A stretch of DNA of 29,336 nt. It comes from Pseudomonadota bacterium (GTDB lineage: Bacteria; Pseudomonadota; Gammaproteobacteria; Arenicellales; Poriferihabitantaceae). The notes under the pieces were generated by a model, which did not search any database, was not told the DNA's origin, and saw only the letters and a program-made list of their open reading frames with translations. This document shows positions 2,964-21,349 of the stretch, in pieces. The position numbers were made by a program, and so were the translations under genes. The stretch's first letter is position 1. Each line of letters begins with the position of its first letter. Location of the stretch: contig JAAELZ010000211.1 of the NCBI GenBank assembly GCA_024226105.1, positions 1 through 29,336 on the forward strand, given 5' to 3'.

Positions 2964-3189
2964 TACCTCCTTCTATTACGAGGAGCCCATTTGTGCTGCC
3001 GGTGAAAAACCAGCTAACTGCACGTGTCTTTAATAACGTCTGGAAGAAAATACGCCTTGATACATATCAAGAGATTTTCGACAACGAGCGGCTTCATTCC
3101 CATAGGGGCATCAAATGATTCAATCTAAGCCGGAAATGTTCTAGCTCATGGAGGGCACTGTCAGAGGCATCATTCTTGCACCGGCCTCA

Positions 3190-3355
3190 TATGTTTCAAT
3201 CAAGCGGCAAATTGGACCTGGCCTTTTTTGATCAATATGACGTGCAAGATGTTCGCGGAAATTTGCAAAACCGATGCCGTATGCTGGATAACCTCTGGCG
3301 GAAACCGATGCCGCCTGCAGTAATTCATTGTCATCCTGGTTATCCGAACAATGCC
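3190..3355 (-). pseudogene. Degraded IS6-family transposase 5' remnant
   Basis: From ATG at 3334: MTMNYCRRHRFPPEVIQH, matching the IS6-family N-terminal Y.RHRFPPE.I.H motif. A shifted frame gives FREHLARHIDQKRPGP, resembling the FAR.IR..RP.P segment. GGCATTGTT (3347-3355) resembles IS6 terminal repeats. Boundaries approximate. Confidence 0.55.
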
Positions 3356-3600
3356 AGCAGTTTTCTTTTGATCTGTTGATCAGTTCCGCTGATTGAGCCA
3401 ACGCCAATTAGTCGGTCTATCAGGAATTCCGCCAATATCAGGGTTTCGGATGCGTCAGCAACTGCATGGTGCAACAAATTTTGCCAGATCTGTACAAGAT
3501 CTTTGTCCAGTTCTTCCACAAGTTTTAGGTCATCGGCATTTATAGCCAGTTCAATCTTAGATGAAATTTGTTGAAATCGTTTGGTAAGTTGCGTAATCAT
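3340..3600 (-). CDS. Hypothetical small alpha-helical protein (86 aa)
   Basis: Clean ORF in an otherwise unoccupied region, with amphipathic helical composition. Aligns without gaps over 35 aa to the 110-aa protein at 26856-27188. Confidence 0.7.
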   Translation of the reverse strand: MITQLTKRFQQISSKIELAINADDLKLVEELDKDLVQIWQNLLHHAVADASETLILAEFLIDRLIGVGSISGTDQQIKRKLLALFG

Positions 3601-3979
3601 GATTGCCTAACGTGCCAGCATCATGCTGTGAATCCTTGTGATTCAATTACCCCAATAAAAATATACGCACTGACCTATACCTGAAATTTTAGGTTATCGG
3701 CATATGAATGTGACAATGGCACAGAATAGATAAAAATTGAATTGTATTTTGTATTAATAGTTAATACCTTGAGCTAAATTGGAAATTGTTGTCGCAATAA
3801 TAATGATGATTGTGAAGTTATTCGTAGCAATCCAAAATAAATAAGCAAAAATTAACTCTTCAATATTAGATGACACTATATTTTTCCTGGTGTATAGAAG
3901 CATGCAATTACTTGATTGACTGGCGACAAATAAATGAGCTAATTTTATGCAAGATGATATGCCCGGATGAGGATTGGCC

Positions 3980-4978
3980 ATGGCATTCTATCACAATTTG
4001 AAAAACTACGAAGCGCAAAAGGCAAAATCAATTGCCCAGCGTTTGTTAATCTTGCGCAAGGAGTTAAGCGTTTCGCCAGGCGCCAAGCGTGCGCCCGGTT
4101 CGCTGGTGGTTGGTTCGTGGAACATACGTGCATTTGATGGAGGGCGTCCGCGGCGCGATGAGAGTTTTCACTACATTGCCGAAATTATTGACAAATTTGA
4201 TATCTGTGCGCTTCAGGAAATCAAAAAAGACCTGAAGCCACTGCGCCGGCTGGTTAAGCTGCTCGGGCCAAATTGGTCATACTTTGTTACCGATGTCACC
4301 GAAGGACATGCGGGAAACACCGAACGTATAGCGTTCTTATACAACACCAATCGTGTATTCTTCCGCAATCTTATTGGAGAACTGGTTTTACCGCCGGGAG
4401 ATTTGATCAATGGGCGCCAAATTGCCCGGACACCGTTTTTTGCATCTTTTCAGGCGGAATGGTTCAAGTTCACGTTATGCAGCGCGCACATTGCTTTTAA
4501 GGCTGCAGCTGGATTGGCGGATCAAGAACTCAGGCGGAGGGAAATTTCTACAATTGCCAGAGCCCTTGCCGCACGGGCTAAACAGGAAGGTGAGGTCTAT
4601 TTCTTTCTGGGAGACATGAACATAGACAGCCCGCAAGACCCGACAATGCAGGCACTGGAAGACAATGGTTTTAAAGCACCGTTGTTTGGCCCAACCAATC
4701 TCGCTGGCGGCAAACATTTTGATCAACTCGCGTATACTGGTGAAGGGCAACGCACCGACCTTCTTTCTCATGGCAAGTTCGATTGGCGCGGGGCGGTTTA
4801 CACGCCAGATGACCGCGATCATTATGAACCTATCGCTGCGCAAATGCGTGGTGAACCTTACGACAATTGGCCGTCAAAATACTCGGGTTGGACAACGCAT
4901 GAAATGTCAGATCATCTGCCAATCTGGGTTGAAGTGATGGTTGACTATTCGGATGCATATCTGGAGCGATTTATATAG
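3980..4978 (+). CDS. Endonuclease/exonuclease/phosphatase (EEP, DNase I-like) family protein
   Basis: SWNIRAFD, ALQEI, ERIAFLYN, LGDMNI and SDHLPIWVE motifs. Start placed at ATG 3980 (GAGGA 6 nt upstream) rather than the track's TTG 3974. Confidence 0.9.
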   Translation: MAFYHNLKNYEAQKAKSIAQRLLILRKELSVSPGAKRAPGSLVVGSWNIRAFDGGRPRRDESFHYIAEIIDKFDICALQEIKKDLKPLRRLVKLLGPNWSYFVTDVTEGHAGNTERIAFLYNTNRVFFRNLIGELVLPPGDLINGRQIARTPFFASFQAEWFKFTLCSAHIAFKAAAGLADQELRRREISTIARALAARAKQEGEVYFFLGDMNIDSPQDPTMQALEDNGFKAPLFGPTNLAGGKHFDQLAYTGEGQRTDLLSHGKFDWRGAVYTPDDRDHYEPIAAQMRGEPYDNWPSKYSGWTTHEMSDHLPIWVEVMVDYSDAYLERFI

Positions 4979-5033
4979 AAATAGGCAAATTGCCGAAGAA
5001 TATTCTGCCGTTGGTGGATAGAACCGGCATATC

Positions 5034-5639
5034 TCAAACTTTCAGGATGGCAATAATTTCTTCACAGGTAGTTATGGCAGCGATAGTGGATAAAGAGTCG
5101 ATGGTTGAGTTATGCGCTTGCTCGCTGAATGCGGCGCAGCCATTTTCGAGAACAATGCTGTGAAAATCGCGCACATGCGCATCCCTGAGGGTTGAAGCAA
5201 CGCCTCCATTGGTGACAATTCCCCCAAACACCAGGGTTTTCAATCCGGCACGATGCAATACCCACTCCAGACGGCTTTGGTAAAACGCCGAAAAGGCAAT
5301 TTTCTCCACCATCAGATCCACAGGTTGCATAGCATCAATCAACTGGTGCCCAAAGGTGCCCGGCGAGAAATCTCCTTTGCCCAGAAACGGGCGCAGCTTT
5401 TGCAGATGAGGTGAGATGAAGGGTTGTCCCGCCTTGCCTGGTACCAGTGTGAAATGGGTAGAGATGATCCAGCCTCCGGCGGCACGCATGGCATCGGCAA
5501 CTGGAACCAGTTGTTCAGGCAATGCGCTGATCGCTGCACATGTCTGTCCGGCACGACCATAGGCTCCTTCAGGGTGCAAAAAGTCATTTTGCATATCGAC
5601 CAGTACCAGTGCGGTGGTCTTCGGGTCAAATTCAAGCAT
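5034..5639 (-). CDS. Isochorismatase/cysteine hydrolase family protein (nucleophile Cys replaced by Gly)
   Basis: VDMQNDF (Asp), EKIAFSAF (Lys), and GIVTNGGVASTLRDA where TxxCV is expected. Starts 3 nt after the hydantoinase A stop. Confidence 0.9.
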   Translation of the reverse strand: MLEFDPKTTALVLVDMQNDFLHPEGAYGRAGQTCAAISALPEQLVPVADAMRAAGGWIISTHFTLVPGKAGQPFISPHLQKLRPFLGKGDFSPGTFGHQLIDAMQPVDLMVEKIAFSAFYQSRLEWVLHRAGLKTLVFGGIVTNGGVASTLRDAHVRDFHSIVLENGCAAFSEQAHNSTIDSLSTIAAITTCEEIIAILKV

Positions 5640-5642
5640 GGT

Positions 5643-7718
5643 TCAGGCCTTTTGATTGCGGGTGATGATCAGATTGCCGAAACGGTCCACCCTGCCTTCC
5701 AGCTCCGGCTCAATACAGATGGTGGCATCAGGTTGTTCCAGAATAGCCGGTCCGGGAATTTGGGTGCCGACTGATAGTGGCAGACGTTGATAGATTCCGG
5801 TCTGATGGAAGGCGTTGTCAAACCAAACCTGCCGGGTGCCGGTGCATGCGTCTTCCAGTGCCACGCCATCTGCCGGGGCTAGCATGGTCAGATCAAACTT
5901 GGGTCGCCTCCCGATGGCAGAGACGCGCAGGTTTAAGACCCGGACCGGTATGCCTGCAAGTGGCTTGCCGTACACTTCGCGGTAGCGGATCTCAAAAACA
6001 CTTGAGATAATATCCGTACTGATCCCGGTGTTGGTACCGTCAAAATCCAGTGGCACACTCACATCTACCGTATGCGTCTGGCCAACATAGCTCATGTCGA
6101 GTTCGAACCGGACTTCTGAGCTTTCAAACGCCACGCCGGTGTTTTCCAGCAGTTGAAATCCCTTGACCGCCAGGCCGGACAATTGCCTGTCCAGTCCTGA
6201 TATATCCAGCTGGCCCAAAATACCATTCACTGTCTGCACGAAATCATGACGCATGTCAGCAATCGTACAACCAAGGGCGGAATTGATACCAGGATAACGC
6301 GGCACCAAAGCACTTTTCAGGCCAACCTCCTTGATCAGCGCACCCGCATGCAGCGCGCCACCGCCACCAAATGGCATTGCGGAGAAGTTCTTGGGATCAT
6401 AACCGCGTTCGATCGACACCAGCCGGATAGCACCTGCCATTTTCGAGTTCGCCACTCGAATGACCGCCTCTGCTGCGCGCATGACGTCAAGACCAAGCGG
6501 CGTGGCGACATGGGTGTCTATTGCCGCCTTTGCCGCTTCTACATCCAGTCGGTCCAGCTTGCCACCGATGGGTTTATCGGCATTGATCCGGCCTAGTACC
6601 ACATTGGCGTCAGTAACGGTGGGGCGCTCATTGCCAAGCCCGTAACACACTGGTCCGGGGTCGGATCCCGCACTTTGTGGACCAACCTGCAGCAATCCGC
6701 CCGGGTCCACCGATGCGATAGAACCGCCACCGGCACCAATAGTGGTCATTTCGATCATCGGGGTGCGAACGGTCAGGCCGAAATCGATACTGGTTTGTGC
6801 AGCCAGCGAGCTTTGCCCGTCAACCACCAGCGAGACATCGAAACTGGTACCCCCCATGTCGCAGGTAATGACGTTAGGAAACCCGGCCTCGCTGGCGATA
6901 AATCCACTGGCAATCACCCCGGCGGCCGGTCCTGACAAAGTGGTGCGCACCGGCAATTGCCGGGCCGTATCGACGCTCATCACCCCGCCATTGGATTGCA
7001 CAATCAGTACTTCCCCCTCAAAGCCGTCATCGTGCAAAGCCTGTTCCAGCTTGTGCAGGTAACTTGCCACAACAGGTTGCAGGTAGGCATTCAGTGTGGT
7101 TGTTGAAGTTCTTTCAAATTCGCGAATTTCCGGGAGTATATCGCTCGAGGCTCCAACATGGTTGTTGGGCCATATCTCGCGCAGGATTTTCAGCGCGGTT
7201 CTTTCGTTTGCAGAGTTTGCATAAGCATTGATGAAAACAATACAGGCGGATTGGCATCCCAGCTCAAGCAGTTTATGCGCGGCTCGCTTCACCCCATTGG
7301 CATCCACGGTTGTGCGAATGGTGCCGTCGGCCAAGGTGCGTTCCGCCACCTCGACACGGCGGTTGCGTGGTACTACAGGCTCAAACTGCCCCCATAAACC
7401 CCAGGTATTGGGACGGTCCCGGCGGCGCATTTCCAGTACGTCCCGGAACCCTTGTGTGGTGATGATGCCGGTCCTGGCACCTTTTCGTTCCAGCAGGGCA
7501 TTGGTGCCAACAGTTGTTCCGTGCACAACCGTCGAGACATCGGCGAAATTTGCAATTTTCTGACGGATGCCTTCAATAAAACCTTTTGACTGGTCTGCAG
7601 GGGTTGATGGCACTTTGGTGACTTCGCAATGTCCGGAAACTTCATTCAGGAAGAAGACGTCGGTAAAGGTGCCGCCAACGTCGACACCAATCACATAGCG
7701 CGGTGCATCTTCGCTCAT
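5643..7718 (-). CDS. Hydantoinase/oxoprolinase family, A (ATP-binding) subunit
   Basis: GVDVGGTFTD, HGTTVGTNALLERKG, LSGPAAG, DMGGTSFD, GAGGGSIA, FGGGGALHA; 691 aa. ATGA overlap with the B-subunit stop. Confidence 0.95.
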   Translation of the reverse strand: MSEDAPRYVIGVDVGGTFTDVFFLNEVSGHCEVTKVPSTPADQSKGFIEGIRQKIANFADVSTVVHGTTVGTNALLERKGARTGIITTQGFRDVLEMRRRDRPNTWGLWGQFEPVVPRNRRVEVAERTLADGTIRTTVDANGVKRAAHKLLELGCQSACIVFINAYANSANERTALKILREIWPNNHVGASSDILPEIREFERTSTTTLNAYLQPVVASYLHKLEQALHDDGFEGEVLIVQSNGGVMSVDTARQLPVRTTLSGPAAGVIASGFIASEAGFPNVITCDMGGTSFDVSLVVDGQSSLAAQTSIDFGLTVRTPMIEMTTIGAGGGSIASVDPGGLLQVGPQSAGSDPGPVCYGLGNERPTVTDANVVLGRINADKPIGGKLDRLDVEAAKAAIDTHVATPLGLDVMRAAEAVIRVANSKMAGAIRLVSIERGYDPKNFSAMPFGGGGALHAGALIKEVGLKSALVPRYPGINSALGCTIADMRHDFVQTVNGILGQLDISGLDRQLSGLAVKGFQLLENTGVAFESSEVRFELDMSYVGQTHTVDVSVPLDFDGTNTGISTDIISSVFEIRYREVYGKPLAGIPVRVLNLRVSAIGRRPKFDLTMLAPADGVALEDACTGTRQVWFDNAFHQTGIYQRLPLSVGTQIPGPAILEQPDATICIEPELEGRVDRFGNLIITRNQKA

Positions 7719-9445
7719 GATTGTGCAGCCTTCCTCAGTTTGGTCGTTTGACGAGTGTTTACGTCGCCGTTCTGATCCAGCGCCACGGCGTAGTCTCGTA
7801 CAGCACTTTGCTGGCTGACAAAACCAAGGGCAACATCACGCGCTACAGCTGCCGGCTGGCGTTCAAACGGCAAGCCATAGCCGCCGCCGCCCGGGGTCTC
7901 CAGACGCACGCACTGGCCTTTCTTCAATTTGATCCCAACCATTTTTGAAACCATCGGCGGGATGTAATCGCCATCCTGCTGCTGGTAGGTGAATTTGTTA
8001 AGCGCCGCCGGTTTGCCACCGACAACGCCGGGGGGAGGGAATTTTCCACGTTCACCAAATAAAAAGACATCCGCATTTTCTTCCAGCAATTCAATTTCAT
8101 AGATTGCCCCAAGACCGCCACGGTGGCGTCCCGGTCCACCACTGTCAGGACGCAGGCTCCATTGGGTGAACATTACCGGATAAGCAGCTTCCAGTATTTC
8201 TGCCGGAGGAATGGTCGCGGTAGAAATTGGCGCATTACCATGGTTCAGGCCGTCGCCTTCAGGATGGCCACCATGACCGCCACCAAAAAATGAGAACATC
8301 ACCCAACGGCTTTTGTCTTTGCGAAAACCGGCAAGTGACAGGGCATTGATTGTACCATAAGCGCAACCATTGACCCGTTCGGGTGCCACATCCGCCAGGG
8401 CACAGAAAATCACGTCGATAATGCGCAGGATGGTTTCAGTATAACCCCCGACCGGTTTGGGCGCGCGTACGTTCAACAGTGAGGAATCCGGGATGATCAC
8501 CTCGATTGGCTCCAGAACGCCGGCATTGGCCGGGACTTCCGTAAACAGGTGTTTGGTGGCCACATAGATTGAGGCAATGGCGGTGGAGAGCGAGATATTG
8601 ACCGGTCCGGCACAGGCATCCGACGTGCGGCTAAAATCAAGCGTCATCCGATCATCTTTGATGGTCATATCCAGTACAATTTTCAATGGCTTGTCAACAA
8701 TGCCGTCATTGTCGAGAAAGTCTTCGGCTGAATAAGTTCCATCCGGCAAATCAGATATATTTGCCGCCATCAGTTTGGCCGCGCGATTGCGCAACTCCAG
8801 TAATGCTTCTGCCACAATTGTATCGGAATACTCATCCAGCAGTGCCTTCATCCGCCGCATTCCCAAATCAAGTGCGTTGATCTGTCCGTTCAGGTCGCCA
8901 TAAAGACTGCCAGGCAAGCGTGAATTCGCCAGCAGAATATCGACCACGTCCTGACGCAGCTCGCCCTTGCAAAAAAGTTTTACCGGCGGGATCAGCATGC
9001 CTTCCTGAAAACTTTCCGTAGCAACCGGGTTGTAGTTCCCGGGCACGTTGCCACCCACATCGTGCCAGTGACCGACCGAGGCAAGGAAGCAGAATATCTG
9101 GCCGTCCCGGTAGAAAGGCTGCACCAGCCTGAAATCTGAAAGATGAGTGCCACCATCATAGGGGTCATTAAAAATATAAATGTCGCCATCAGCCAGGTCA
9201 CCGTCCTTTGACGCTTTTTCAATCACTGCTTTCACAGCAAAAGACATGGCGCCGACGAAAATTGGCAAACCGGATTTACCCTGCACCAGCGTTTCGCCGG
9301 TCTTGGCGTGGTAAAGTCCGTGTGAGGCATCATGTGCCTCAGCAATTATTGGATTGAATGCGCTACGAAACAAGGTGGCATCCATTTCGTCCGCGATTTG
9401 TTCCAGACGGCCTTTCAGCACCGCCAGGGTCACTGGATCAATCAT
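7715..9445 (-). CDS. Hydantoinase B/oxoprolinase family subunit
   Basis: MIDPVTLAVL, FNDPYDGGTHLSD, GHWHDVGG, EGMLIPP, ETPGGGGYG. Start placed at ATG 9445 (GAGGA RBS, overlapping the lyase stop) rather than 9457. Confidence 0.95.
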   Translation of the reverse strand: MIDPVTLAVLKGRLEQIADEMDATLFRSAFNPIIAEAHDASHGLYHAKTGETLVQGKSGLPIFVGAMSFAVKAVIEKASKDGDLADGDIYIFNDPYDGGTHLSDFRLVQPFYRDGQIFCFLASVGHWHDVGGNVPGNYNPVATESFQEGMLIPPVKLFCKGELRQDVVDILLANSRLPGSLYGDLNGQINALDLGMRRMKALLDEYSDTIVAEALLELRNRAAKLMAANISDLPDGTYSAEDFLDNDGIVDKPLKIVLDMTIKDDRMTLDFSRTSDACAGPVNISLSTAIASIYVATKHLFTEVPANAGVLEPIEVIIPDSSLLNVRAPKPVGGYTETILRIIDVIFCALADVAPERVNGCAYGTINALSLAGFRKDKSRWVMFSFFGGGHGGHPEGDGLNHGNAPISTATIPPAEILEAAYPVMFTQWSLRPDSGGPGRHRGGLGAIYEIELLEENADVFLFGERGKFPPPGVVGGKPAALNKFTYQQQDGDYIPPMVSKMVGIKLKKGQCVRLETPGGGGYGLPFERQPAAVARDVALGFVSQQSAVRDYAVALDQNGDVNTRQTTKLRKAAQS

Positions 9446-10331
9446 TGTTATCCTCAAAGTTTACCGCATCGTAACTTGCTCCAAGGGCCAGCAGGTCATC
9501 GGTGCCGAGCAATCCGTTTAATCCGTCGAAGTCCAGCATCCGGTGTTGAAACGGCACGTTTGACCCATGAGTTTTAAGGCTAGAAAGATATTCCTGTATG
9601 GTCCTGGCTATGGCTCGCACCATGCCACCTGGAAAGATTGCAAGCGAAAATCCGATGGTTTTCAGTTCTGCAGCGGTTTTCTGGGGCGTCCTGCCACCCT
9701 CGACCATATTGGCCATCAGCGGTAGGCGAGATCCAAAACGCTCGACAATCGCCTGAATCTGTTCCATGGATTGTGGCGCTTCGACAAAAAGGATATCAGC
9801 CCCGGCCTCGGTATACTGTTCCGCGCGGTCCAGAGCAGCGTGAAAGCCTTCCACCGCAATGCCATCGGTACGCGCAATAATCAGGGTATCAGAACTACGC
9901 CGTGCATCCAGTGCCGCTTTGATCTTGCCGACCATTTCAGCGCTACTCACCAGTGTTTTGCCGCTCAGGTGACCGCAACGTTTGGGCAGGGTCTGATCCT
10001 CCAGCTGGATAGCGCCAGCCCCTGCGGATTCGAATAGGCGTATCGTGCGCATGACGTTGAGTGCATTGCCAAAACCGGTATCAGCATCGACCACAATGCG
10101 CAATTTACAACGTTCTGAGATTACCGACAGTGTTTCGGCAACTTCGGACATGCCAACCAGTCCGATATCCGGACGCCCAAATCGTGTATAGGCGATAGAT
10201 GCCCCCGAAAGATAGGCTGCGTGAAACCCCGCCTGTTCCACCATGGCGGCACCGAACGCATCAAATATGCCGGGAGCGATGGCAATCTCATCCCCGGATA
10301 ACTGGCTTTTCAGGTTTGGGTGGAGCGTCAC
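9438..10331 (-). CDS. Isocitrate lyase/PEP mutase family C-C lyase (methylisocitrate/dimethylmalate lyase-like)
   Basis: YLSGASIA, DADTGFG, LEDQ.LPKRCGH (catalytic Cys loop), IIARTD, ANMVEGGRTP. GTGA overlap with the LeuD-like gene. Confidence 0.93.
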   Translation of the reverse strand: MTLHPNLKSQLSGDEIAIAPGIFDAFGAAMVEQAGFHAAYLSGASIAYTRFGRPDIGLVGMSEVAETLSVISERCKLRIVVDADTGFGNALNVMRTIRLFESAGAGAIQLEDQTLPKRCGHLSGKTLVSSAEMVGKIKAALDARRSSDTLIIARTDGIAVEGFHAALDRAEQYTEAGADILFVEAPQSMEQIQAIVERFGSRLPLMANMVEGGRTPQKTAAELKTIGFSLAIFPGGMVRAIARTIQEYLSSLKTHGSNVPFQHRMLDFDGLNGLLGTDDLLALGASYDAVNFEDNND

Positions 10332-10831
10332 GTTGCAGCATCCCTTGTTGCCAGCCTTTTTTCCAGATGCTTCACCAGACCACCGTCTCTTACTATTTCC
10401 AGAAGATTGTCAGGCAATCGATCGCACTGATAGGTCTCATCGGTGGTGTGATTGGTAATTACGCCGTTTGCTGCATCTGCTGATATTTCATCACCCATGC
10501 GTATATTACCGGCATTTTTGCAAGTCAGCGCAACAACGCCAAAATTCAAGGCATTGCGAAAGAAAATTCCGGCAAAGGATTTGGCAACCAGTGTGCGCAC
10601 GCCAAGAAACTGCAGAGCCTGCACTGCCTGTTCGCGAGAAGAACCAATGCCGAAATTCTCACCGCCAACTATCACATCACCCGGATTTACATTCCCGGCA
10701 AATTGCGGATCAGCTGCCTCAAGACAATGATCGGCAAGTTGTTTTAGCGGGCCTTTCATGTAGAGACCGGGGGCAAGAATATCCGTATCGATGTTGTCAC
10801 CAAATACCCAGGCTTTCCCGTTTTTTGTCAT
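10328..10831 (-). CDS. 3-isopropylmalate dehydratase-like small subunit (short HacB/DmdB type)
   Basis: FGDNIDTDILAPG, NFGIGSSREQA, KSFAGIFFRNALNFG; 167 aa. Not named leuD because the context is catabolic. Confidence 0.93.
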   Translation of the reverse strand: MTKNGKAWVFGDNIDTDILAPGLYMKGPLKQLADHCLEAADPQFAGNVNPGDVIVGGENFGIGSSREQAVQALQFLGVRTLVAKSFAGIFFRNALNFGVVALTCKNAGNIRMGDEISADAANGVITNHTTDETYQCDRLPDNLLEIVRDGGLVKHLEKRLATRDAAT

Positions 10832-12105
10832 ATCCTACCCTCTTCAAGAAATTCCCGTGGATCAGTAATGAAACCGGTCACTGCACTTGCCGCCACAGTG
10901 TAGGGTGAACCGAGGTATACCTTTGACGTCAAAGCTCCCATACGTCCCTGAAAATTACGTGCGGTCGAGGAAATGCAGGTTTCATTTTCAGCCAGTACAC
11001 CCGCGCCATATCCAGCGCAAGCCCCACACCCCGAGGGCATCAGGATAGCGCCAGCTGCAGTCAGAGTTGCCAATGTACCATCACTCGCAGCGGCAGCGGT
11101 AATTCTGGTGCTCGCGGGCGCCAGTAGCAAACGGGTACTGCTGGAAATTTTGCGACCTTTCAAAACGGCGGCAGCCATATGCAGGTCATCCAGTTTTGCC
11201 CCGGTACAGCCCCCGATATAGGCCTGATGCACAGATACGCCCGTATGCATGTCCACTGGTGCGCAATTGGCCGGAGAATGAGGTGCTGCCACATAGGGGG
11301 AAAGGCTTGAGGCATCCACGAGGTGTGTTTTCAGATATTCTGCATCCGCGTCGCCCAACCATTTTTCTCGATCACCCGCATCACCGCCCGCGGCGCGAAT
11401 ATAGTCTGTTGTCGTTTCATCAGCAGCAATCAAACCGGTCTGTGCTCCAAGTTCCGCTGCCATGTTGCACAGCGTCATGCGGCTCATCATTGGCATATCG
11501 CAAACCGTGTTTCCGCAATACTCAATCACCTGATATTCCGCGCCACCTGTGCCTATACGTGCACATAGATGAAGGATGATATCCTTGGCGCATATGCCGG
11601 TTCCAAGAGAACCGTTTATATCGACACGTATGGTGCCCGGGACTTTTATCCATGTCTCGCCCGTTACCAGAATCCCGGCCATATCGGTGGCTCCCACGCC
11701 AAACATGAAACATCCAAATGCCCCCCCGGTTGGTGAATGGCTGTCACCGCCAACCACGAATTTGCCCGGTGACAAGTGGCCGCGCTCAGGCAGAACCACA
11801 TGGCAGATGCCCTGCATATCATAAAATCTGCTAATCCGGTTATCGCTCACCCATTTTCGGGTCATATCCAGTATTGCGGCACTCATCGCATCAACCGCCG
11901 GCACAAAATGATCCGAGATCACCACCACTTTGTCCGGGTTCCAGACTGTTGCACCAAGCTGTTCCAATATCGGTTTCACCCGCCGAGGACCGCCGCTGTC
12001 ATGCATCATCGCCAGATCGACCGTGCAGGTTACCACCTCGCCCGGATTAACGCTTTGGCGTCCGCATGCGCGTGCTATTATTTTTTCTGCCAGTGTTGCG
12101 GCCAT
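10828..12105 (-). CDS. 3-isopropylmalate dehydratase/aconitase-family large subunit (HacA/DmdA type)
   Basis: TLAEKII, DHFVP, GICH, GDSHS, RMTLCNMAAELGA; [4Fe-4S] ligands in IGGCT and SGCGAC; STARNFQGRMG; 425 aa. Confidence 0.95.
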   Translation of the reverse strand: MAATLAEKIIARACGRQSVNPGEVVTCTVDLAMMHDSGGPRRVKPILEQLGATVWNPDKVVVISDHFVPAVDAMSAAILDMTRKWVSDNRISRFYDMQGICHVVLPERGHLSPGKFVVGGDSHSPTGGAFGCFMFGVGATDMAGILVTGETWIKVPGTIRVDINGSLGTGICAKDIILHLCARIGTGGAEYQVIEYCGNTVCDMPMMSRMTLCNMAAELGAQTGLIAADETTTDYIRAAGGDAGDREKWLGDADAEYLKTHLVDASSLSPYVAAPHSPANCAPVDMHTGVSVHQAYIGGCTGAKLDDLHMAAAVLKGRKISSSTRLLLAPASTRITAAAASDGTLATLTAAGAILMPSGCGACAGYGAGVLAENETCISSTARNFQGRMGALTSKVYLGSPYTVAASAVTGFITDPREFLEEGRI

Positions 12106-12126
12106 TATTTTTATAGTTCCAGGCGA

Positions 12127-13452
12127 CTAGTTTCCCATCAATACCGGGTCAAATGGATAGGTGGTCAGGTTTTCGTGACCATCTTGTGTTATCAGGACCT
12201 GATCTTCAAGCTTGATCGAGAAATCCCCTCCTACAGCACCTACGAGTGCTTCGACGCACAGCACCATTCCGGGCTCCAGAACATAGTCGAATGCCCCTTC
12301 GACAAACTGGCTTGGATAGGCAATTGTTGGCCATTCATCGCACAGGCCCACGCCGTGCATTTTGCAACCATATTTCAGAGGTTCAAATACATCGTCGAGA
12401 TGGTGCCCGCCATAGGTCAACTCGCTCATACTGACGCCTGGTTTCAGCATTTCAATATTGGTCATTATATGCTCATGTGCGTGGCGCATAGCATAGACCA
12501 TTTCATTTGATGGCTTATCATCGCCAAACCACCAGGTTCGAGAAATATCAACGCAGATGCCATAAGTGCCGATCAGATCGGTATCAAAGGCGACTATCTC
12601 ATTGTTTTGCAGAATTCGGGGGCCACATTCCTGGAACCACGGATTAGTTCGCGGGCCAGTTGTCAGCAAACGCGTCTCAATCCATTCACCACCACGTTTG
12701 ATGTTTTCTGCGTGAAGAACCGCCCAGATTTCATCCTCGGAAAGGCCCGTCCGTGTCTGCTCATACATCGCACCAACGGCGGTTTCGCCAGCATGCATGG
12801 CGCAGCGCATGGCAAGGATCTCATCGGGCCCTTTTATCGAGCGGCTTTTCTCGGTAACTTCCTCACCTTCCTCAATCGTGAAGCCCGTTGCTTCAAGCGC
12901 CTTCAGACCGGCAATCTGAATTTTGTCGACGGCCAGGGCGCGGTTATCACCGGAATGTTCACGCATTAATTCGTCAACCTGAACAACGAAACTCCTTGCA
13001 TCGTCTTCACCCTTGTCACCGCTGACCATATAAAAGGATGAAGCGCCCGAGCGGCATTCTCGAACCAGTGGATTGAAATCCGCCAGAAAAGGCGAATTCT
13101 TGTAATCCCAGATCACCATATATCCGTCGGCACACAAAAGGACCGCACGGAAAGGATTGTGGGTATTCCACAATTGCATGTTTGTGGTGTCTGTGGCGTA
13201 GCGGATATTAAGCGGATCAAACATCAGCAACCCACCATAGTGCCGCTCTACTATGTGCTGGGTAAGCCGCTTCCAGCGAAATTCCCGCATACGCTGTAGA
13301 TTTGGTAAGGTCAGTCCGGCCCTCTCCCACTCCCGGAAGGCCAGTTGAGTTGGTCCGATTTCGATACGGTCAAGATCGTTTGGTGTTCCATCACCCAGGG
13401 TCGTTCCTCGGCTTGGATCTATCTTGCGGATGTCAGAATAATACTGTTTCAT
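12127..13452 (-). CDS. dddP: Dimethylsulfoniopropionate (DMSP) lyase DddP (M24 peptidase fold)
   Basis: RKIDPSRG.TLGD.TPND..RIEIGPTQLAF.EW, TNMQLWN.HNPFRA, WIETRLL..GPRTNPWFQECG, and metal ligands FDTD, VDISR, MHGVG, CVEA, KLEDQ closely match roseobacter DddP as I recall it. Start set at ATG 13452 (MKQYYSD); the track's 13596 start is an extension. Confidence 0.93.
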   Translation of the reverse strand: MKQYYSDIRKIDPSRGTTLGDGTPNDLDRIEIGPTQLAFREWERAGLTLPNLQRMREFRWKRLTQHIVERHYGGLLMFDPLNIRYATDTTNMQLWNTHNPFRAVLLCADGYMVIWDYKNSPFLADFNPLVRECRSGASSFYMVSGDKGEDDARSFVVQVDELMREHSGDNRALAVDKIQIAGLKALEATGFTIEEGEEVTEKSRSIKGPDEILAMRCAMHAGETAVGAMYEQTRTGLSEDEIWAVLHAENIKRGGEWIETRLLTTGPRTNPWFQECGPRILQNNEIVAFDTDLIGTYGICVDISRTWWFGDDKPSNEMVYAMRHAHEHIMTNIEMLKPGVSMSELTYGGHHLDDVFEPLKYGCKMHGVGLCDEWPTIAYPSQFVEGAFDYVLEPGMVLCVEALVGAVGGDFSIKLEDQVLITQDGHENLTTYPFDPVLMGN

Positions 13453-13760
13453 GGCCATCATTCCAATCTGTTTTATCAACGGTAAGAACATTACAAATTG
13501 GTTGTCAATGAATTTTTGTGCCGATCCTGGCATCGCAAAAGGAATGCGGCTGGCAGTCGGGGGATGGATGGTTTGCGCGGCTTTTTTCAAATGCAAAATT
13601 AATAGATTGATTCAGGAAAGCTCTCTATTGTCAGTTGAGTTTTTCTATATATCTGGATAGCTGCTCTCGCGGCAAGAACTGCGGAGAGCAATTTGAACAT
13701 TTGACTTTTTGACGGGTACTTCTGTTCGCACTGCCTTGCATATTCCCGCAAATTTGAGAT

Positions 13761-15540
13761 TTACAAATTGAGAGTATCAGGATCAATGTCCAAAATTGCC
13801 TGATAGTGACTCAAATAGACCTTGCCGGTCAGGTGCTTGAAAAACTCCATTTTCTTCAAGCCGTCCATAACCGGGCCTTTGATTTCGGACATTCAAAACA
13901 GAACACCTGAATCTTTAAGCCTGTGGTTGATTTCTTCAATGCTTTCAAGTGCGCTCGCGTCAATGGCGTTCACGGCTGAACACATCAGAACTACATGTTT
14001 GATTTCAGGACGGCTGGTTATGTAGCCGTAAATAAAATCCTCCAGATAGCGGGCATTGGCAAAATACAGGCTTTCGTCGATCCTGATGGAAACGACCGAG
14101 GGACTGGTGTTTACATTGTGGCGCAGAATATTACGGAAGTGCTCGCTCCCCGCGACATTGCCAACAATCGCCAAATGCGGCCTGCTGGTATTATAAAGAT
14201 GGATTCCCACGGACAAGGCAACACCGACCGTAATACCCAGTTCCAAACCGAATATCAGCGTCACCACTATTGTTGCCAGCATCGCTGAAAAATCCGTGCG
14301 TGAATACCGCCAGGTGTGACGCATTGTTGCAAAGTTGATAAGCGAAACAACCGCAACAATGATAATTGCCGCCAGCGTCGCGACTGGAAGATAATATAGC
14401 ATAGGCGTCAGCAATAGCGTCGCGACAGCAATGCAAACGGCAGTGAAGGCGCCAGCCGCAGGGGTCTTTGCGCCGGCATCAAAGTTGACGACCGAACGCG
14501 AGAAACCTCCGGTTACCGGATAGGCCCCTGAAAATGCCGAGCCGAGATTTGCCATCCCAAGACCAATCAGTTCCTGATTTGGATTGATGCGCTGCCGTTT
14601 CTTTGCCGCCAGTGTCTGGGCAATCGAGATAGACTCCACGAAGCCAATTATACTGATAAGCATCGCCGGGCCTGCAAGTGCCGACCATAATTCCATATCA
14701 AAGGAAGGAATTGAAAAACCTGGCAATCCAACCGGTACTTCACCGATAATGTGCACACCGTAACCGGCAAAGTCAAAAACCGCGGAAACAATTACCGTCA
14801 CGCTGACTGCAATCAGCGGGCCGGCCTTGGCGAGAACCGACGCCAGAATTGAGTTGGCACCTTTGGAAATCAGGAAAGGTTTTAGGAGATTTTCTGGACC
14901 AGTACAAAAATACAATAACGCCGATGCCCAATATCAGACTGATCAGATTGGTTTGTGTGATTTGTCCCAGAATAGATGTGACCAGCTGATAAAATCCTCG
15001 CCCCGCAACCTTTATGCCAAGAAGATGTTTTAGCTGGCTGGTTGCTATGATAATTGCCGCCGCATTGATAAAACCGGTAATCACCGGATGGCTTAGAAAA
15101 TTGGCCAAAAAACCCAGTCTGAATACTCCCATGGCCAGCAGGAACAGGCCTGAAATGAATGCAAGCAGGATCGCGGCGGTCAGATATTCCGCTGTACCCT
15201 GATCGGCAATTGTGCCAACCGCGGAAGCAGTCAACAGGGAAACGACCGCCACAGGGCCAACCGCCATCACTCGACTGGTGCCAAATAGCGCATAGGCAAC
15301 GAGTGGTAAAATGCTGGCATACAGGCCAATTTCCGGAGGCAGCCCGGCAAGCAGTGCATAGGCCAGGGCCTGGGGGATGAGCATTATAGTGACAGTGATC
15401 GCGGCAACCAGATCGTTTGAAAACGTATTCGTGTTGTAGGTAGCAAGCCATTCAGCTGGTGGAAACCAGCTGGAAATTGTGCCCGAATTTAGATCCAGTC
15501 TGACCTGTTTGGCTGCATTCACCAATTTATCAAGTTTCAA
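13761..15540 (-). pseudogene. SulP/SLC26 family anion permease with STAS domain, disrupted
   Basis: The N-half (IPQALAYA.LAGLPP..GLYAS, GPVAVVSL, LSHPVITGF) and the C-half (QELIGLG, TGGFSRS, RIDESLYFAN) are in different frames; removing one G at 14885-14886 restores WSRKSLKPF. An in-frame TGA at 13893-13895 is followed by the normal tail MSEIKGPVMD...NL to TAA at 13761. Confidence 0.9.
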
Positions 15541-15668
15541 GATAAGGTCCCCTTGACTGGATTATCGGAAAATCTATTGGGCTGAAGTCAAAAAATAGTG
15601 CCAGACCAAATAGCCTGATGATCAAATTCAGCCAGTATTTGTCTCATGCGCTAACCAATTACATATGC

Positions 15669-15691
15669 TCTGCTGATGGAGCAGATTTTTT
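15669..15691. terminator. Possible intrinsic terminator hairpin
   Basis: TCTGCT-GATGG-AGCAGA followed by T6 on +, ~30 nt past the aminotransferase stop. The T-tract is on the opposite strand to the flanking genes, so the call is weak. Confidence 0.3.
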
Positions 15692-15720
15692 ATTCAGGGA
15701 TGCTACGAAACCAGGGTAAT

Positions 15721-17115
15721 CTATTCAAGTGGGTTTTGCTGGCAAAGCTGGTCTGACAGATCTCTTAGGGTACGTTCCAGGCGTTCAAGTAGCTCGGTTG
15801 CTTCTTCAGTCGTAATTGTGAGTGGTGGTGATACCAGAAACCAGTGCCCATATTTTCCACCTGAAGTTGGGCGGGAATAAATCATCAGGCCATTGTTAAG
15901 GCCATGAATTCTTACAAGGTCAGTTGGCTGCAATTCATTTTCAAACGATGCTTTGGTTGTTTGATCGGCGACGATTTCAACGGCAAGAAGCATTCCAAGA
16001 CCACGAATGTCACCAATGATAGGTAGTTTCGCTTTCAGGCTTTCCAGGCCTTTCCGCAGTTTTGCTCCCGTTACAATGGCGTTGTTAGTGAGATCAAGGC
16101 GCGCATATTCATCCAGTACAGCCAATCCGGCAGCCGATGACACAGGATTTGCATTGTAAGAATACTGGAATTCGAACCCGGTGAGATCAGCAAGTTCATC
16201 GACCATGATTGCCGGGGCAAGAACGGCACCTAACGGACTGTATCCGGAAGCCATGCCCTTTGCCATGGTAACAATATCTGGCAAGGCATCCGGCCAGTGG
16301 TGGGCAGCAAGAAATTTACCCGTGCGCCCCATGCCGCATAAAATTTCATCGAAAACCAGATGAATGGCGTGTGATGTGCAGATTTCCCGGATCTGACAAA
16401 TATATTCCCTGGACGGCACGACACATCCTGTAGACAGGCCGCCAACCGGCTCAATGACGAATGCAAGAACATTGCTGGCTCCCAATTCACTAATCCTGGA
16501 TTCCAGTGCGTCGGCGCAATGTCGGGCATAGCTTTTGATATTGTGATTTGGTGGCAGACGGTATGTCAGCGGAGCAGGAATTTTGGGTGTTGGTTCGGTA
16601 AATCCCTGCAGGAACGGTTTCATCATGATTTCGCCGTTCATGGCAAGTGTGGCAATTGTGGCGCCGTGATAGGAGGGTTGACAGGTAATAACTCTGGTTT
16701 TTGATGGCTTTCCGGTGGCAATTGCATATTGACGGAGAAACTTGATGGCATTTTCCATCGCTTCACTTCCACCCGAGGTCAGATGAATACGTTCAAATCC
16801 GGGACCTGCCAGTTTGGCCAGGCGTTGACAATATTCGATGTTGGGACGGTTTTGCGCCAGTCGTGCAAAAGCATATTCCATTTTCTTTGCCTGGGCAGCC
16901 ATAGCCTCGGCAACAACAGCGTTGCCGTGGCCGATATTACTGACAACCGGACCGGAAGAAACATCGATATAAGATGTGCCCTGATCATCCCACATATGTA
17001 TTCCCGAGGCTCGCTCGATAAGGGGTAGAGGGACCTTGTTGGCAGTGGCATAGAAGGCCGATTGTCCCCTTCCATCATTGTGTTTGGTCGAATGTTCTAC
17101 AGATATATCGGGCAT
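15721..17115 (-). CDS. Class III PLP-dependent aminotransferase
   Basis: YIDVSSGP.VSNIGHG, LTSGGSEA.E.AIK, SYHGAT, FVIEPVGG, VFDEILCGMGRTG, TMAKG (PLP Lys). Start likely ATG 17115 (GGAG 6 nt upstream); ATG 17127 is the alternative. Confidence 0.93.
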   Translation of the reverse strand: MPDISVEHSTKHNDGRGQSAFYATANKVPLPLIERASGIHMWDDQGTSYIDVSSGPVVSNIGHGNAVVAEAMAAQAKKMEYAFARLAQNRPNIEYCQRLAKLAGPGFERIHLTSGGSEAMENAIKFLRQYAIATGKPSKTRVITCQPSYHGATIATLAMNGEIMMKPFLQGFTEPTPKIPAPLTYRLPPNHNIKSYARHCADALESRISELGASNVLAFVIEPVGGLSTGCVVPSREYICQIREICTSHAIHLVFDEILCGMGRTGKFLAAHHWPDALPDIVTMAKGMASGYSPLGAVLAPAIMVDELADLTGFEFQYSYNANPVSSAAGLAVLDEYARLDLTNNAIVTGAKLRKGLESLKAKLPIIGDIRGLGMLLAVEIVADQTTKASFENELQPTDLVRIHGLNNGLMIYSRPTSGGKYGHWFLVSPPLTITTEEATELLERLERTLRDLSDQLCQQNPLE

Positions 17116-17148
17116 CGGATTCTCCATTTTTGCGAATTCACATCCTGT

Positions 17149-17202
17149 GATACAATTCCATTATATTGTATCGATAGTATTGACGTGCATATCGAGTCAA
17201 TA
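17149..17202. promoter_or_regulatory. Divergent promoter/operator with two inverted repeats
   Basis: GATACAAT-N8-ATTGTATC (17149-17172, perfect) and TATTGAC-N11-GTCAATA (17178-17202). The second contains back-to-back TTGAC -35-like hexamers. Confidence 0.65.
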
Positions 17203-17216
17203 TAAACATTGTCATC

Positions 17217-18611
17217 ATGACAATGTGGCTTCCTGACCTGGATGGTAAATCCGGTCCGAAATATCAATCGATTGCTCTGGCAATCGGTGAAAGCATAGCT
17301 AGTGGCAGCTTGAAGGAGCGCGACCGATTACCTCCACAGCGTGAGCTTGCCTATCAATTGGGTGTATCGCTCAATACGGTGAGCCGGGCTTATTGCGAGG
17401 CAACAAATAGAGGTTTTTTATGTGGTGAAGTAGGACGCGGAACATATGTTCGCGTCCATGGGCATCTTCCCTCCTCCAACACCGGCAATGGTATGATGCG
17501 AACAATCGATGGTCCCGTTGATTTCACCCTGAACCTGCCCGCCCATGGCAATGGAGCCATTGCGCTTGCCGAAACGCTCGAAACTCTGAAGCATTCCAAT
17601 GCCCTGTCATCTTATCTCGACTATCAAACTGGGAATGATTTGAAACGCCACACCCGGGCCGCGGCATCGTGGATCAGCCGGCTTGGTTTTGAAGCTTCAG
17701 GTGATGATATCATCCTGACAAACGGTGCACAGCACGCCATTATGGTGGCATTGTTGGCAATCACCCGACCAGGGGATGTTCTTTTGGTTGAACCGATGAC
17801 CTACGCTCCTGTCAAATCAATAGCGCTCCATCTCGGTTTGATACTGTTTGCCGTGGAAATGGACGAAGGGGGATTGTCACCACAGGCTCTGGATGCGGCT
17901 TGTAGTTCAACCGCTGCAGCAGTCCTCTACTGTTTGCCGACATTGCACACACCCACGACAATCACCATGTCATCTGAGCGTCGGCGGGAAATTGCCGAGA
18001 TCGCCAGAAAACATCAACTGACGATTATTGAAGATGACGTCTTTGGATTTTTGCAGTCACACAGACCTCCGCCGCTGGCAGGTTTTGCTCCTGATTTGAC
18101 AATTTTGATTTCCAGCGTATCAAAATGTCTCGCTCCAGGCCTTCGCATTGGCTATATTCACGCGCCAAAAAGGCTTCAACGCGCACTGCGGGCCGCAGTG
18201 AATCTATCATGCTGGATGCCCCCGCCTTTGATGGCTGAGATCGCCAGCATGTGGATTGAAGAGGGCACAGCCGACAATCTCAACGAATTCCAGAGAATTG
18301 TCGCCCGAACCAGACAAAAACAGGCGCAACAAATTCTCGATGGGCACGAAGTGTTGTCAGACCCAGAAGGATTTCATTTGTGGCTTTTGCTGCCGACCCA
18401 CTGGCGCGCAGATACCTTTCGTGCCGCTGCTGAAAAATCAGGCGTAAAAGTGCTGACGGGAGAAACTTTTGCGGTTGAACAAAACACTGCCCCCCAGGCT
18501 GTCAGACTTTGCCTTTCTCATGAAATTTCAGATGAACGGGTGAACAAGGGACTGGGCATCCTCGCCGGTTTACTGGCGGAAACCAGCGACCCTGGCCTGC
18601 TGGTGGTCTGA
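17217..18611 (+). CDS. MocR/GabR-type (GntR family) regulator with PLP aminotransferase-like domain
   Basis: N-terminal wHTH RLPPQRELAYQLGVSLNTVSRAY...GEVGRGTYV; TNGAQHA, IIEDDVF, SSVSKCLAPGLRIG (PLP Lys). Confidence 0.95.
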   Translation: MTMWLPDLDGKSGPKYQSIALAIGESIASGSLKERDRLPPQRELAYQLGVSLNTVSRAYCEATNRGFLCGEVGRGTYVRVHGHLPSSNTGNGMMRTIDGPVDFTLNLPAHGNGAIALAETLETLKHSNALSSYLDYQTGNDLKRHTRAAASWISRLGFEASGDDIILTNGAQHAIMVALLAITRPGDVLLVEPMTYAPVKSIALHLGLILFAVEMDEGGLSPQALDAACSSTAAAVLYCLPTLHTPTTITMSSERRREIAEIARKHQLTIIEDDVFGFLQSHRPPPLAGFAPDLTILISSVSKCLAPGLRIGYIHAPKRLQRALRAAVNLSCWMPPPLMAEIASMWIEEGTADNLNEFQRIVARTRQKQAQQILDGHEVLSDPEGFHLWLLLPTHWRADTFRAAAEKSGVKVLTGETFAVEQNTAPQAVRLCLSHEISDERVNKGLGILAGLLAETSDPGLLVV

Positions 18612-18849
18612 TTTTGTAACCATGAATGGGTCAGGAATTCAGCACATTACTTCAGGCTCGATACGGCATATTTTAGTTGGCACTTCAATTCCAGGTGACT
18701 AAGTCGTGGATTCATAAACACCCAGCCATAACCTTATTGCAGCCAGCTTGAATCACAGCCACCAGGCAATCTCAATTCATCCATGGACCGGCAGGCATTA
18801 CCCCAAGAACGGACATATTATCTCGGCACACAAACGGTAGATAATGTTA

Positions 18850-19202: not shown

Positions 19203-20414
19203 TCAAGCTGCGTTCCTTGTTTTTGCGGGCGGCGGATGTGTCCAGGGTTTTTCGGCTCTGGGGAAGGTTTCAATGATGATCATAGGCCCGCCACAACATG
19301 GGCAGGACGGCAATTCCATGGCAGATACATTGTCGCCTTCATTGGGGTCGCCTTCATTGGGTGTTTCGTTGTCAGGCGGTAGATCAAGCAATTTACGGCA
19401 CAGGGCAATGTTCCTGGCGCGATAGCCATTGGCAAACAGACCGTAATGGCGGATGCGATGAAAGCCATGCGGCAGGACGTGGATGAGAAAGCGGCGGATG
19501 AACTCGCCTGCATCCAGGGTCATAGTTTTCTGTCGGTCCCGCCCTTTTGCACGGTAATCCTTCCATTTGAACGTGACTTGATTATCCTCAATTTTCAGCA
19601 GACGGCTGTTTGCGATAGCCACTCTGTGGGTGTAGCGGGACAGGTAAGCAAGAACCGCTTTTGGTCCGGCAAAGGGGCGTTTGGCGTAAACGACCCAATT
19701 GGTTTTGTGTAAACGTGCCAGGAAGCCTGCGAATGCCGCGCTATCCGCCAGGTGGATGTGTTCACTGAAGAAGCTCAATCGCCCCGCCTCATGTGCCGCA
19801 AACAGCTTCTCAAGAAACAACCGGCGGAACAATTTTGAGAGTACCCATACGGGCAGGAAGAAGCCGGGCTTGCAGGATACCCATGTTTTTTCATCCCGCG
19901 ATATCCCGCCACCGGGCACGATCATGTGTACATGGGGATGATGAGTCATGGCAGAGCCCCATGTGTGGAGAACAGATGTCATCCCGATCTTTGCCCCCAG
20001 ATGTCTGAGATCGGCAGCGATGGTGATCATGGTCTGGGAACTGGCTTTAAGCAGCAGATCGTAAACTACCGCCTTGTTGTGATAGGCAATATCGGCGATT
20101 GCAGCAGGTAACGTAAAGACCACATGGTAGTAGGGCACTGGTAGCAATTCCGCCTGTCGCGCCTCCAGCCATTTGATGGCCGCACCGCCTTGGCACTTGG
20201 GACAGTGCCGGTTGCGGCAGGAATTGTAGGCGATCCGCAAATGCTCACAATCGGCGCACTGTTCCACATGGCCACCGAGTGTTGCAGTACGGCAGATCTC
20301 GATTGCACTCATCACCTTCAACTGGCCGAGGCTTATGTGACCGGCATTGGCTCTACGCCATGCCGCCCCGTGATCGCGGAAGATGTCCGCAACCTCCAAT
20401 CTTGCACGGGACAT
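19203..20414 (-). CDS. IS91-family transposase (zinc-binding domain + HUH/Y2)
   Basis: LEVADIFR, CRT..LGGH...C..C, NSCRNRHCPKCQ, HUH motif HPHVHMIV, Y2 motif YLSRYTHR, FHRIRHYGL, C-terminal CPCC; 403 aa, no lesion seen. Confidence 0.95.
   Translation of the reverse strand: MSRARLEVADIFRDHGAAWRRANAGHISLGQLKVMSAIEICRTATLGGHVEQCADCEHLRIAYNSCRNRHCPKCQGGAAIKWLEARQAELLPVPYYHVVFTLPAAIADIAYHNKAVVYDLLLKASSQTMITIAADLRHLGAKIGMTSVLHTWGSAMTHHPHVHMIVPGGGISRDEKTWVSCKPGFFLPVWVLSKLFRRLFLEKLFAAHEAGRLSFFSEHIHLADSAAFAGFLARLHKTNWVVYAKRPFAGPKAVLAYLSRYTHRVAIANSRLLKIEDNQVTFKWKDYRAKGRDRQKTMTLDAGEFIRRFLIHVLPHGFHRIRHYGLFANGYRARNIALCRKLLDLPPDNETPNEGDPNEGDNVSAMELPSCPCCGGPMIIIETFPRAEKPWTHPPPAKTRNAA
19332..19361. repeat. 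15-bp tandem duplication inside the transposase C-terminal linker
   Basis: GTCGCCTTCATTGGG x2, in frame (PNEGD PNEGD). Confidence 0.9.
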
Positions 20415-20427
20415 GGATCTGCGGCGA

Positions 20428-21303: not shown

Positions 21304-21324
21304 GGGAATACTCCTGTTTACTAA

Positions 21325-21349
21325 ACTTGTGACTTTTACAATCACAAGT
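21325..21349. promoter_or_regulatory. Inverted repeat just upstream of the recombinase RBS
   Basis: ACTTGTGA-N9-TCACAAGT, perfect 8-bp arms. Candidate autoregulatory site or RNA hairpin. Confidence 0.5.

Follow-up and report, generated by a model that had tools for sequence, protein, structure and literature searches.

The 29,336-nucleotide (nt) window analysed here, contig JAAELZ010000211.1 of assembly GCA_024226105.1 (contig C211 of a gammaproteobacterial bin of the family Poriferihabitantaceae, with 926 contigs, 89.8% completeness and 5.5% contamination), carries on its minus strand a dddP gene for a dimethylsulfoniopropionate (DMSP) lyase, followed closely by six genes for a LeuC/LeuD-type hydratase, a C-C lyase, a HyuB/HyuA-type ring-amide hydrolase and an isochorismatase-fold protein. 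This arrangement is probably a lineage-specific operon fusion, in which an acquired dddP fronts a truncated ring-amide operon. In the proposed mechanism, a roseobacter-type dddP would have been horizontally acquired, would have lost its terminator, and would have come to lie, with a 21-nt spacer, in front of a copy of a widespread 13-gene operon cut at both ends. The regulator and importer genes of that operon would have been replaced by dddP, its flavoprotein gene would have been cut to a probable 19-codon relic, and the six remaining genes would be read through from a presumed dddP promoter.

Gene layout, junction and identity of dddP

The seven consecutive minus-strand genes were dddP (12127-13452; 441 amino acids (aa), M24 fold, NF043017), a gene for the LeuC-like large subunit of an aconitase-family hydratase (10828-12105; Pfam Aconitase, NF001614 with 532 bits), one for a LeuD/DmdB-like small subunit (10328-10831; TIGR02087, 174 bits), one for a PrpB/Dml-like C-C lyase of the phosphoenolpyruvate (PEP)-mutase/isocitrate lyase (ICL) superfamily (9438-10331; PF13714), those for the HyuB-type (7715-9445; PF02538, 556 bits) and HyuA-type (5643-7718; Hydant_A_N, Hydantoinase_A and Hydant_A_C domains) subunits of a predicted ATP-dependent ring-amide hydrolase, and one for an isochorismatase-fold protein without the cysteine nucleophile (5034-5639; PF00857). 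The dddP stop codon TAG (12127-12129) and the leuC-like ATG (12105-12103) were separated by 21 nt (12106-12126, minus strand), in agreement with a preliminary description of the window, and this spacer would be the joint of the fusion. A consensus scan found no terminator-like and no promoter-like site at the junction, its RNA folding was no better than that of shuffled sequence (z = +0.61), and no Rfam family matched it. As there is no room for a promoter of its own and no terminator at the junction, transcription of the module most probably reads through from the dddP promoter. The region upstream of dddP (13453-13675, minus strand), presumed to hold the promoter of the fused unit, was common to the sister assemblies described below and gave no convincing sigma-70 match.

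Downstream of this joint, the overlaps were 4 nt for leuC/leuD, leuD/lyase and hyuB/hyuA, and a 3-nt gap separated hyuA from the isochorismatase-like gene. The lyase/hyuB overlap was 8 nt with the hyuB start at ATG 9445 (576 aa, as in orthologues) and 20 nt with the alternative start TTG 9457; the range of 4-8 nt given previously therefore holds if ATG 9445 is the start. The preliminary description had called the whole operon translationally coupled. This was sustained for the five downstream junctions with their overlaps or 3-nt gap, but not for dddP/leuC, where the 21-nt spacer holds just a weak GGAA at -16..-12 before leuC. Going by these distances, dddP and leuC are closely spaced genes, and strict translational coupling is predicted for the five downstream junctions only.

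The DddP protein scored 832 bits on the NCBIfam equivalog model NF043017 over profile positions 2-443 (cut-off 600) and was 77% identical to the crystallised RlDddP of Ruegeria lacuscaerulensis (PDB 4rzy). Compared with 4rzy, all eight key residues were kept, namely the metal ligands D295, D297, D307, H371, E406 and E421 and the catalytic Y366 and D377. These six ligands of the binuclear metal centre (Asp295, Asp297, Asp307, His371, Glu406, Glu421) and the proposed catalytic Tyr366 and Asp377 are reported to be invariant in the DddP family (PMC4108388). Identity was 70-78% to 79 Rhodobacterales-type loci, including Roseovarius nubinhibens ISM, and 73% to the R. nubinhibens locus (L046), whose DddP has been functionally tested. 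In its level of identity, in passing the equivalog cut-off and in its conserved ligands and Tyr366/Asp377, the protein thus resembles the roseobacter DddPs (RlDddP, 4rzy/4s00; RdDddP, 4b28; R. nubinhibens DddP). By these features of its product, the gene is a true dddP, predicted to encode an ordinary DMSP lyase.

The bin's own genus holds another DddP type. DddP-type genes of its genus and family were just 54-60% identical to the window DddP (54-56% within the genus), compared with 70-78% for the Rhodobacterales loci, and for this reason the dddP copy looks horizontally acquired from a roseobacter-like donor. In a tree rooted on a distant paralogue from the bin, with deep nodes and root uncertain, the window DddP fell among the basal Rhodobacterales branches, on a branch no longer than the others. 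The GC content of dddP and the module, overall and at third codon positions (GC3), did not differ from the bin average, and composition is thus uninformative on foreign origin. The roseobacter loci had GC-rich terminator-like hairpins after the dddP stop, some with a T run (L010, L014, L017), with which the gene ends its transcription unit; the window dddP, with no such hairpin, has lost its terminator and is followed by six unrelated genes.

The bin also carried a more distant DddP-like gene of the M24 type (G000:C60:1111-2280), which was 41% identical and, at 421 bits, fell short of the DddP cut-off. Paralogues of this type are common across the family and order of the bin, as 46 of 61 relatives had a DddP-family match, 15 of them above the cut-off.

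The six-gene module and its parent operon

Relatives of the module were collected as the loci of the nearest LeuC relatives (L085-L090, L092 and L093) together with 80 loci added by a metagenome scan, and a panel tblastn was run over all of them. The nearest LeuC relatives, 75-83% identical to the window protein, sit in a full operon of 13 genes, which opens with a GntR/UTRA regulator, continues with a Liv-type ATP-binding cassette (ABC) importer made up of a periplasmic binding protein, two permeases and two ATPases, and then encodes the enzymes LeuC, LeuD, lyase, HyuB, HyuA, isochorismatase-like protein and an FAD_binding_2 flavoprotein of about 463 aa that is closest to the flavocytochrome-c and TcuA models. 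According to the panel tblastn over the metagenome loci, 19 loci had the complete seven-gene core. In the window, the six core genes had the same order and overlaps as in L085-L090 and in these 19 loci, with protein identities of 63-86% (63-83% for the LeuC-like protein against its operon orthologues). By gene content and order, the six genes are the core, or middle part, of a widespread and uncharacterised operon unrelated to dddP. Along L085-L176, the parent operon and the window share the six core genes, their order and overlaps, the KRCGH motif of the lyase and the glycine-for-cysteine replacement of the isochorismatase-like protein (see below), but regulator, importer (five genes) and flavoprotein are absent from the window, where dddP stands at the site of the importer ATPase gene.

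A cyclic amide is the presumed substrate of the parent operon. HyuB scored 269 bits against caprolactamase (6yra_B) and 260 bits against N-methylhydantoinase, versus 121 bits for acetophenone carboxylase and 68 bits for acetone carboxylase; HyuA scored 440 bits against N-methylhydantoinase (structure 7hk5) and 380 bits against 6yra_A, versus 242-298 bits for carboxylase subunits. On the NCBIfam carboxylase models, HyuA and HyuB scored far below the cut-offs, and the operon had no gene for an acetone carboxylase gamma subunit or other extra carboxylase subunit. From these scores, HyuBA resembles ATP-dependent lactamases rather than carboxylases. In variant operons (L099, L138, L139, L129, L165), HyuB, HyuA and the isochorismatase-like protein were replaced by a different isochorismatase-like protein and two PuuE/allantoinase-like proteins of the polysaccharide-deacetylase fold (L099:3041-5572, L138:12600-15261). 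As PuuE-type ring hydrolases are predicted to have displaced them non-orthologously, the replaced step points to a hydrolytic ring opening.

Aconitase-family [4Fe-4S] hydratases of the LeuCD/HacAB/DmdAB type have three cluster-binding cysteines in the large subunit and a separate small subunit. The LeuC-like protein had the motifs Cys300 and Cys360-x-x-Cys363, whose pattern alone marks them as putative cluster ligands, and its gene is followed by one of LeuD type. The lyase had KRCGH at residues 117-121, corresponding to the K(K/R)CGH catalytic loop of the C-C lyases of the ICL/PEP-mutase superfamily, and its best solved relatives were the petal death protein, methylisocitrate lyases and 2,3-dimethylmalate lyase. 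DmdAB and Dml are the dimethylmaleate hydratase and 2,3-dimethylmalate lyase of nicotinate fermentation in Eubacterium barkeri. With a LeuCD-family hydratase paired with an ICL-superfamily lyase in both cases, the predicted hydratase and lyase of the module resemble DmdAB/Dml-type chemistry. The creatinine route, which consists of the N-methylhydantoinase HyuAB and N-carbamoylsarcosine amidase, likewise combines an ATP-dependent HyuAB with an isochorismatase-fold protein, but the window protein differs in having no cysteine nucleophile. For neither system was there an equivalog-level match of the module proteins, and nothing relevant on this combination of enzymes was found in the full-text literature.

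RutB, NicF and N-carbamoylsarcosine amidase use an Asp-Lys-Cys triad with cysteine as the nucleophile. The isochorismatase-fold protein of the window had the motif TNGGVAST where cysteine hydrolases have TNxCV, and glycine replaced cysteine in every orthologue (L085-L176) whose match reached the motif. With glycine at the nucleophile position, the last gene is unlikely to encode a classical cysteine amidase, and its assignment as a cysteine-hydrolase amidase was rejected.

The module was truncated on both sides. The importer genes of full operons finish with an ABC ATPase gene, whose end lies just 2-5 nt from the leuC ATG; in the window, the sequence upstream of this ATG had no similarity to that ATPase gene and consisted of the dddP 3' end and the 21 nt. 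At the other end, 3 nt past the stop codon of the isochorismatase-like gene, ATG CCG GTT CTA opens a 19-codon frame (4971-5030, minus strand; MPVLSTNGRIFFGNLPISI, then stop). The frame starts with MPVL, as does the flavoprotein of L085 at equal spacing, and 8 of its 19 residues were identical, with a tblastn E value of 2 that is not significant alone; because of its position, it is read as a probable flavoprotein relic. Orthologues of the regulator and importer were not found elsewhere in the incomplete bin, where the best matches were just 25-48% identical, and the flavoprotein had no match in it at E below 1e-10. A continuation of the operon into an ApbA-type reductase gene (557-1513) across a 3.5-kb insertion was also considered; the flavoprotein relic and the divergence of the sister locus L091 at 3139 speak against it, and it was rejected.

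Between the window and L091, which both already carry the fusion, the ratio of non-synonymous to synonymous substitution rates (dN/dS) was 0.046 for dddP, 0.13 for leuC, 0.10 for leuD, 0.19 for the lyase gene, 0.07 for hyuB, 0.16 for hyuA and 0.11 for the isochorismatase-like gene. Judged by these ratios, all seven genes are under purifying selection. Together with the KRCGH motif retained by the lyase and the Cys plus CxxC pattern retained by the LeuC-like protein, they speak for a truncated module that is still alive.

Distribution of the linkage and its possible explanations

The linkage was surveyed from both sides. Among the 80 nearest dddP loci, leuC and the module followed dddP only in L005 (DddP 99% identical), from a deposited assembly labelled 'Hyphomicrobiales bacterium Bse_9', and none of about 85 related module loci had dddP apart from L091, from GCA_024449465.1; both are sister assemblies of the window. 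Where leuC had 700 nt or more of sequence in front of it (72 loci), the adjacent gene was the importer ATPase gene in 39 and dddP in one (L091, of the window's lineage), and the remaining neighbours were varied, including 2-hydroxyacid dehydrogenase, major facilitator superfamily (MFS) and EamA transporters, Amidohydro_2 and V4R proteins and others. Since the upstream neighbours vary among loci, the 5' edge of leuC is a modular joint. Co-occurrence at the genome level was spot-checked, as the module, present in 3 of 400 class genomes and 2 of 61 relatives, was too rare for a 2x2 table. The module-type LeuC was absent from all five dddP-bearing roseobacter genomes checked (best match 37-39% identical), dddP was absent from both class genomes carrying a distant module, and neither 8 genomes of the same genus nor 36 of the same family yielded the module LeuC. 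The preliminary description had suggested a neighbourhood survey for a recurring dddP-leuC linkage; by the present counts, the linkage is confined to one lineage of about 96% identity, which comes very close to the restriction to a single genome that the description had named as counting against its idea.

A search of the literature on dddP operons and neighbourhoods turned up only the acuR-acuI-dddL operon of Rhodobacter sphaeroides, in which a DMSP lyase gene is co-transcribed with acrylate-detoxifying genes (PMC3017554). This operon is like the window in placing a DMSP lyase gene with catabolic genes, but its AcuI handles the product of the lyase and the linkage recurs across taxa, whereas the partners in the window are amide and ring-acid enzymes in one lineage.

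An assembly or binning chimera has a negligible probability. The bin is fragmented and partly contaminated (926 contigs, 5.5%), but the same junction recurred in L005 and L091, in a block with 96-97% nucleotide identity to the window, and in one continuous 33.9-kb contig of X2, a separate public DNA sequencing run, which covered window positions 3139-13666 at an even depth of about 28. This recurrence excludes a chimera of the assembly.

The preliminary description had left three options: that the module is a sink for a DMSP-related product or a co-occurring algal metabolite, that DddP acts on another onium substrate, or that capture placed dddP ahead of an operon unrelated to it. In its most explicit form, the sink would have HyuBA carboxylate acrylate to butenedioate, LeuCD hydrate the product and the lyase cleave it. 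The HyuA/HyuB superfamily contains ATP-dependent carboxylases, LeuCD-type enzymes are able to hydrate maleate-type acids, and a module without the flavoprotein desaturase would need an already unsaturated substrate. The carboxylation step nevertheless fared poorly, with HyuB reaching 269 and 260 bits for lactamase and hydantoinase versus 121 and 68 for the carboxylases, HyuA ranking its matches alike, no gamma-subunit gene, and variant operons that swap in PuuE-type ring hydrolases, which are hydrolases rather than carboxylases. The sink as a whole is also at odds with an operon that normally has its own importer and no DMSP lyase, with the absence of the module from the five roseobacter genomes with dddP, and with a candidate for acrylate handling elsewhere in the bin, where an AcuI/YhdH-type reductase gene (421 bits, cut-off 297) directly adjoins an acyl-coenzyme A (CoA) ligase gene (G000:C97:3233-5796). 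Because of this gene pair and of a PrpE-like gene that the bin also has, a conventional CoA route for acrylate is plausible outside the window. The acrylate sink is therefore judged extremely unlikely, and any metabolic link of the module to DMSP, dimethyl sulfide (DMS) or acrylate is unsupported. A DddP shifted to another onium or related substrate that feeds the six-gene pathway is very unlikely as well. Measured activities of DddP on DMSP are low (a Km of 13.8 mM for RnDddP is cited in PMC4108388), so that the family might accept other substrates, but the window protein, 77% identical to the crystallised RlDddP and 73% to R. nubinhibens L046, has every metal ligand and both Tyr366 and Asp377, and with a dN/dS of 0.046 and an ordinary branch gives no sign of neofunctionalisation.

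In a weaker form of the first option, co-regulation would be adaptive without any shared chemistry, with a DMSP-responsive promoter driving the catabolism of a co-occurring nitrogen compound of algal or host origin whenever DMSP indicates its presence. Purifying selection on all seven genes after the fusion favours it, as does the identity of the fused block among strains (96-97%, flanks about 90%), which fits a block kept or spread by selection; moreover, the full operons L088 and L089 lie among osmolyte and quaternary-amine genes encoding a Rieske oxygenase, a dimethylglycine (DMG)-dehydrogenase-like protein, PhyH and BKACE proteins. This explanation is unlikely, though with an appreciable residual chance, as the arrangement occurs in one lineage only and the bin has neither the regulator nor the importer dedicated to the operon, which makes entry of a substrate hard to explain. 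Functional coupling of dddP and the module in general has a small chance of being correct. A non-neutral fusion would go further, with the truncated module rewired to a DMSP signal or to an already unsaturated substrate in a probably host-associated lineage, and the block, under selection and possibly mobile, linking the sensing or cleavage of DMSP to ring-amide catabolism; this is quite improbable.

The capture of dddP in front of an unrelated operon, the third of the earlier options, agrees best with the core occurring elsewhere with the GntR regulator and importer and without dddP, and with the restriction of the linkage to one lineage. A full operon losing its front and tail, with a terminator-less dddP landing in front, is the parsimonious history. 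Several points weigh against the operon fusion. Among public runs, the stretch was found in DNA runs only and not in three RNA runs from the same samples, with zero RNA contigs, and co-transcription is inferred only from the spacing and the absent terminator. The fused arrangement has been kept under purifying selection in several strains, as functional coupling would also predict, and a chemical link to DMSP stays formally conceivable. The fragmentation of the bin and the little synteny of the flanks in same-genus genomes make statements on what the bin's own genome lacks provisional.

With the operon fusion as the preferred reading, a tempting lead to a new acrylate or DMSP sink is removed, and adjacency to dddP in this bin is no basis for functional inference. 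A natural operon fusion would be documented instead, in which the core survives selection without importer, regulator or flavoprotein. Such a truncated natural variant could aid work on the operon by showing which genes are able to work together, and the 5' boundary of leuC is confirmed as a modular joint. The uncharacterised operon itself is a more interesting object than the fusion.

Boundaries and flanks of the shared block

The high-identity block common to L091 and L005 stopped at 13675. The block from 3139 to 13675, comprising dddP, the six genes and a nuclease gene, was 96-97% identical to the sister assemblies, compared with about 90% for the flank with aminotransferase and MocR genes (15399-18846), and between the window and the sister assemblies the synonymous divergence (dS) was 0.24 in the flank versus 0.08-0.17 in the block. 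Its higher identity than that of the aminotransferase/MocR flank suggests that the block may have been exchanged or acquired more recently than its flank. When the insertion site of this island was sought in same-genus genomes, no close orthologue of the flanking aminotransferase was found, and an 8-kb flank matched these genomes only at 64-69% over 300-800 bases, so that the assignment of the contig to the bin is provisional.

At the other edge of the block, a 34-nt sequence (3111-3144) recurred on bin contig C187 and, at raised depth, in several contigs of the runs X2 and X4. It sits where the sister assemblies diverge from the window (L091 at 3139).

Upstream of dddP, a SulP-family permease gene (13893-15540, minus strand) was broken into a pair of overlapping frames (14773-15540 and 13893-14915). 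Most of this permease gene (about 13667-15398) was absent, between 9-bp repeats (TCGCGGCAA), from the sister assemblies and run X2, which looks like independent inactivation of the gene in sister strains. Farther along, 19203-21345 contained an IS91-family (Y2_Tnp) transposase gene and a tyrosine recombinase gene, and the segment 18847-21409 was absent from L005.

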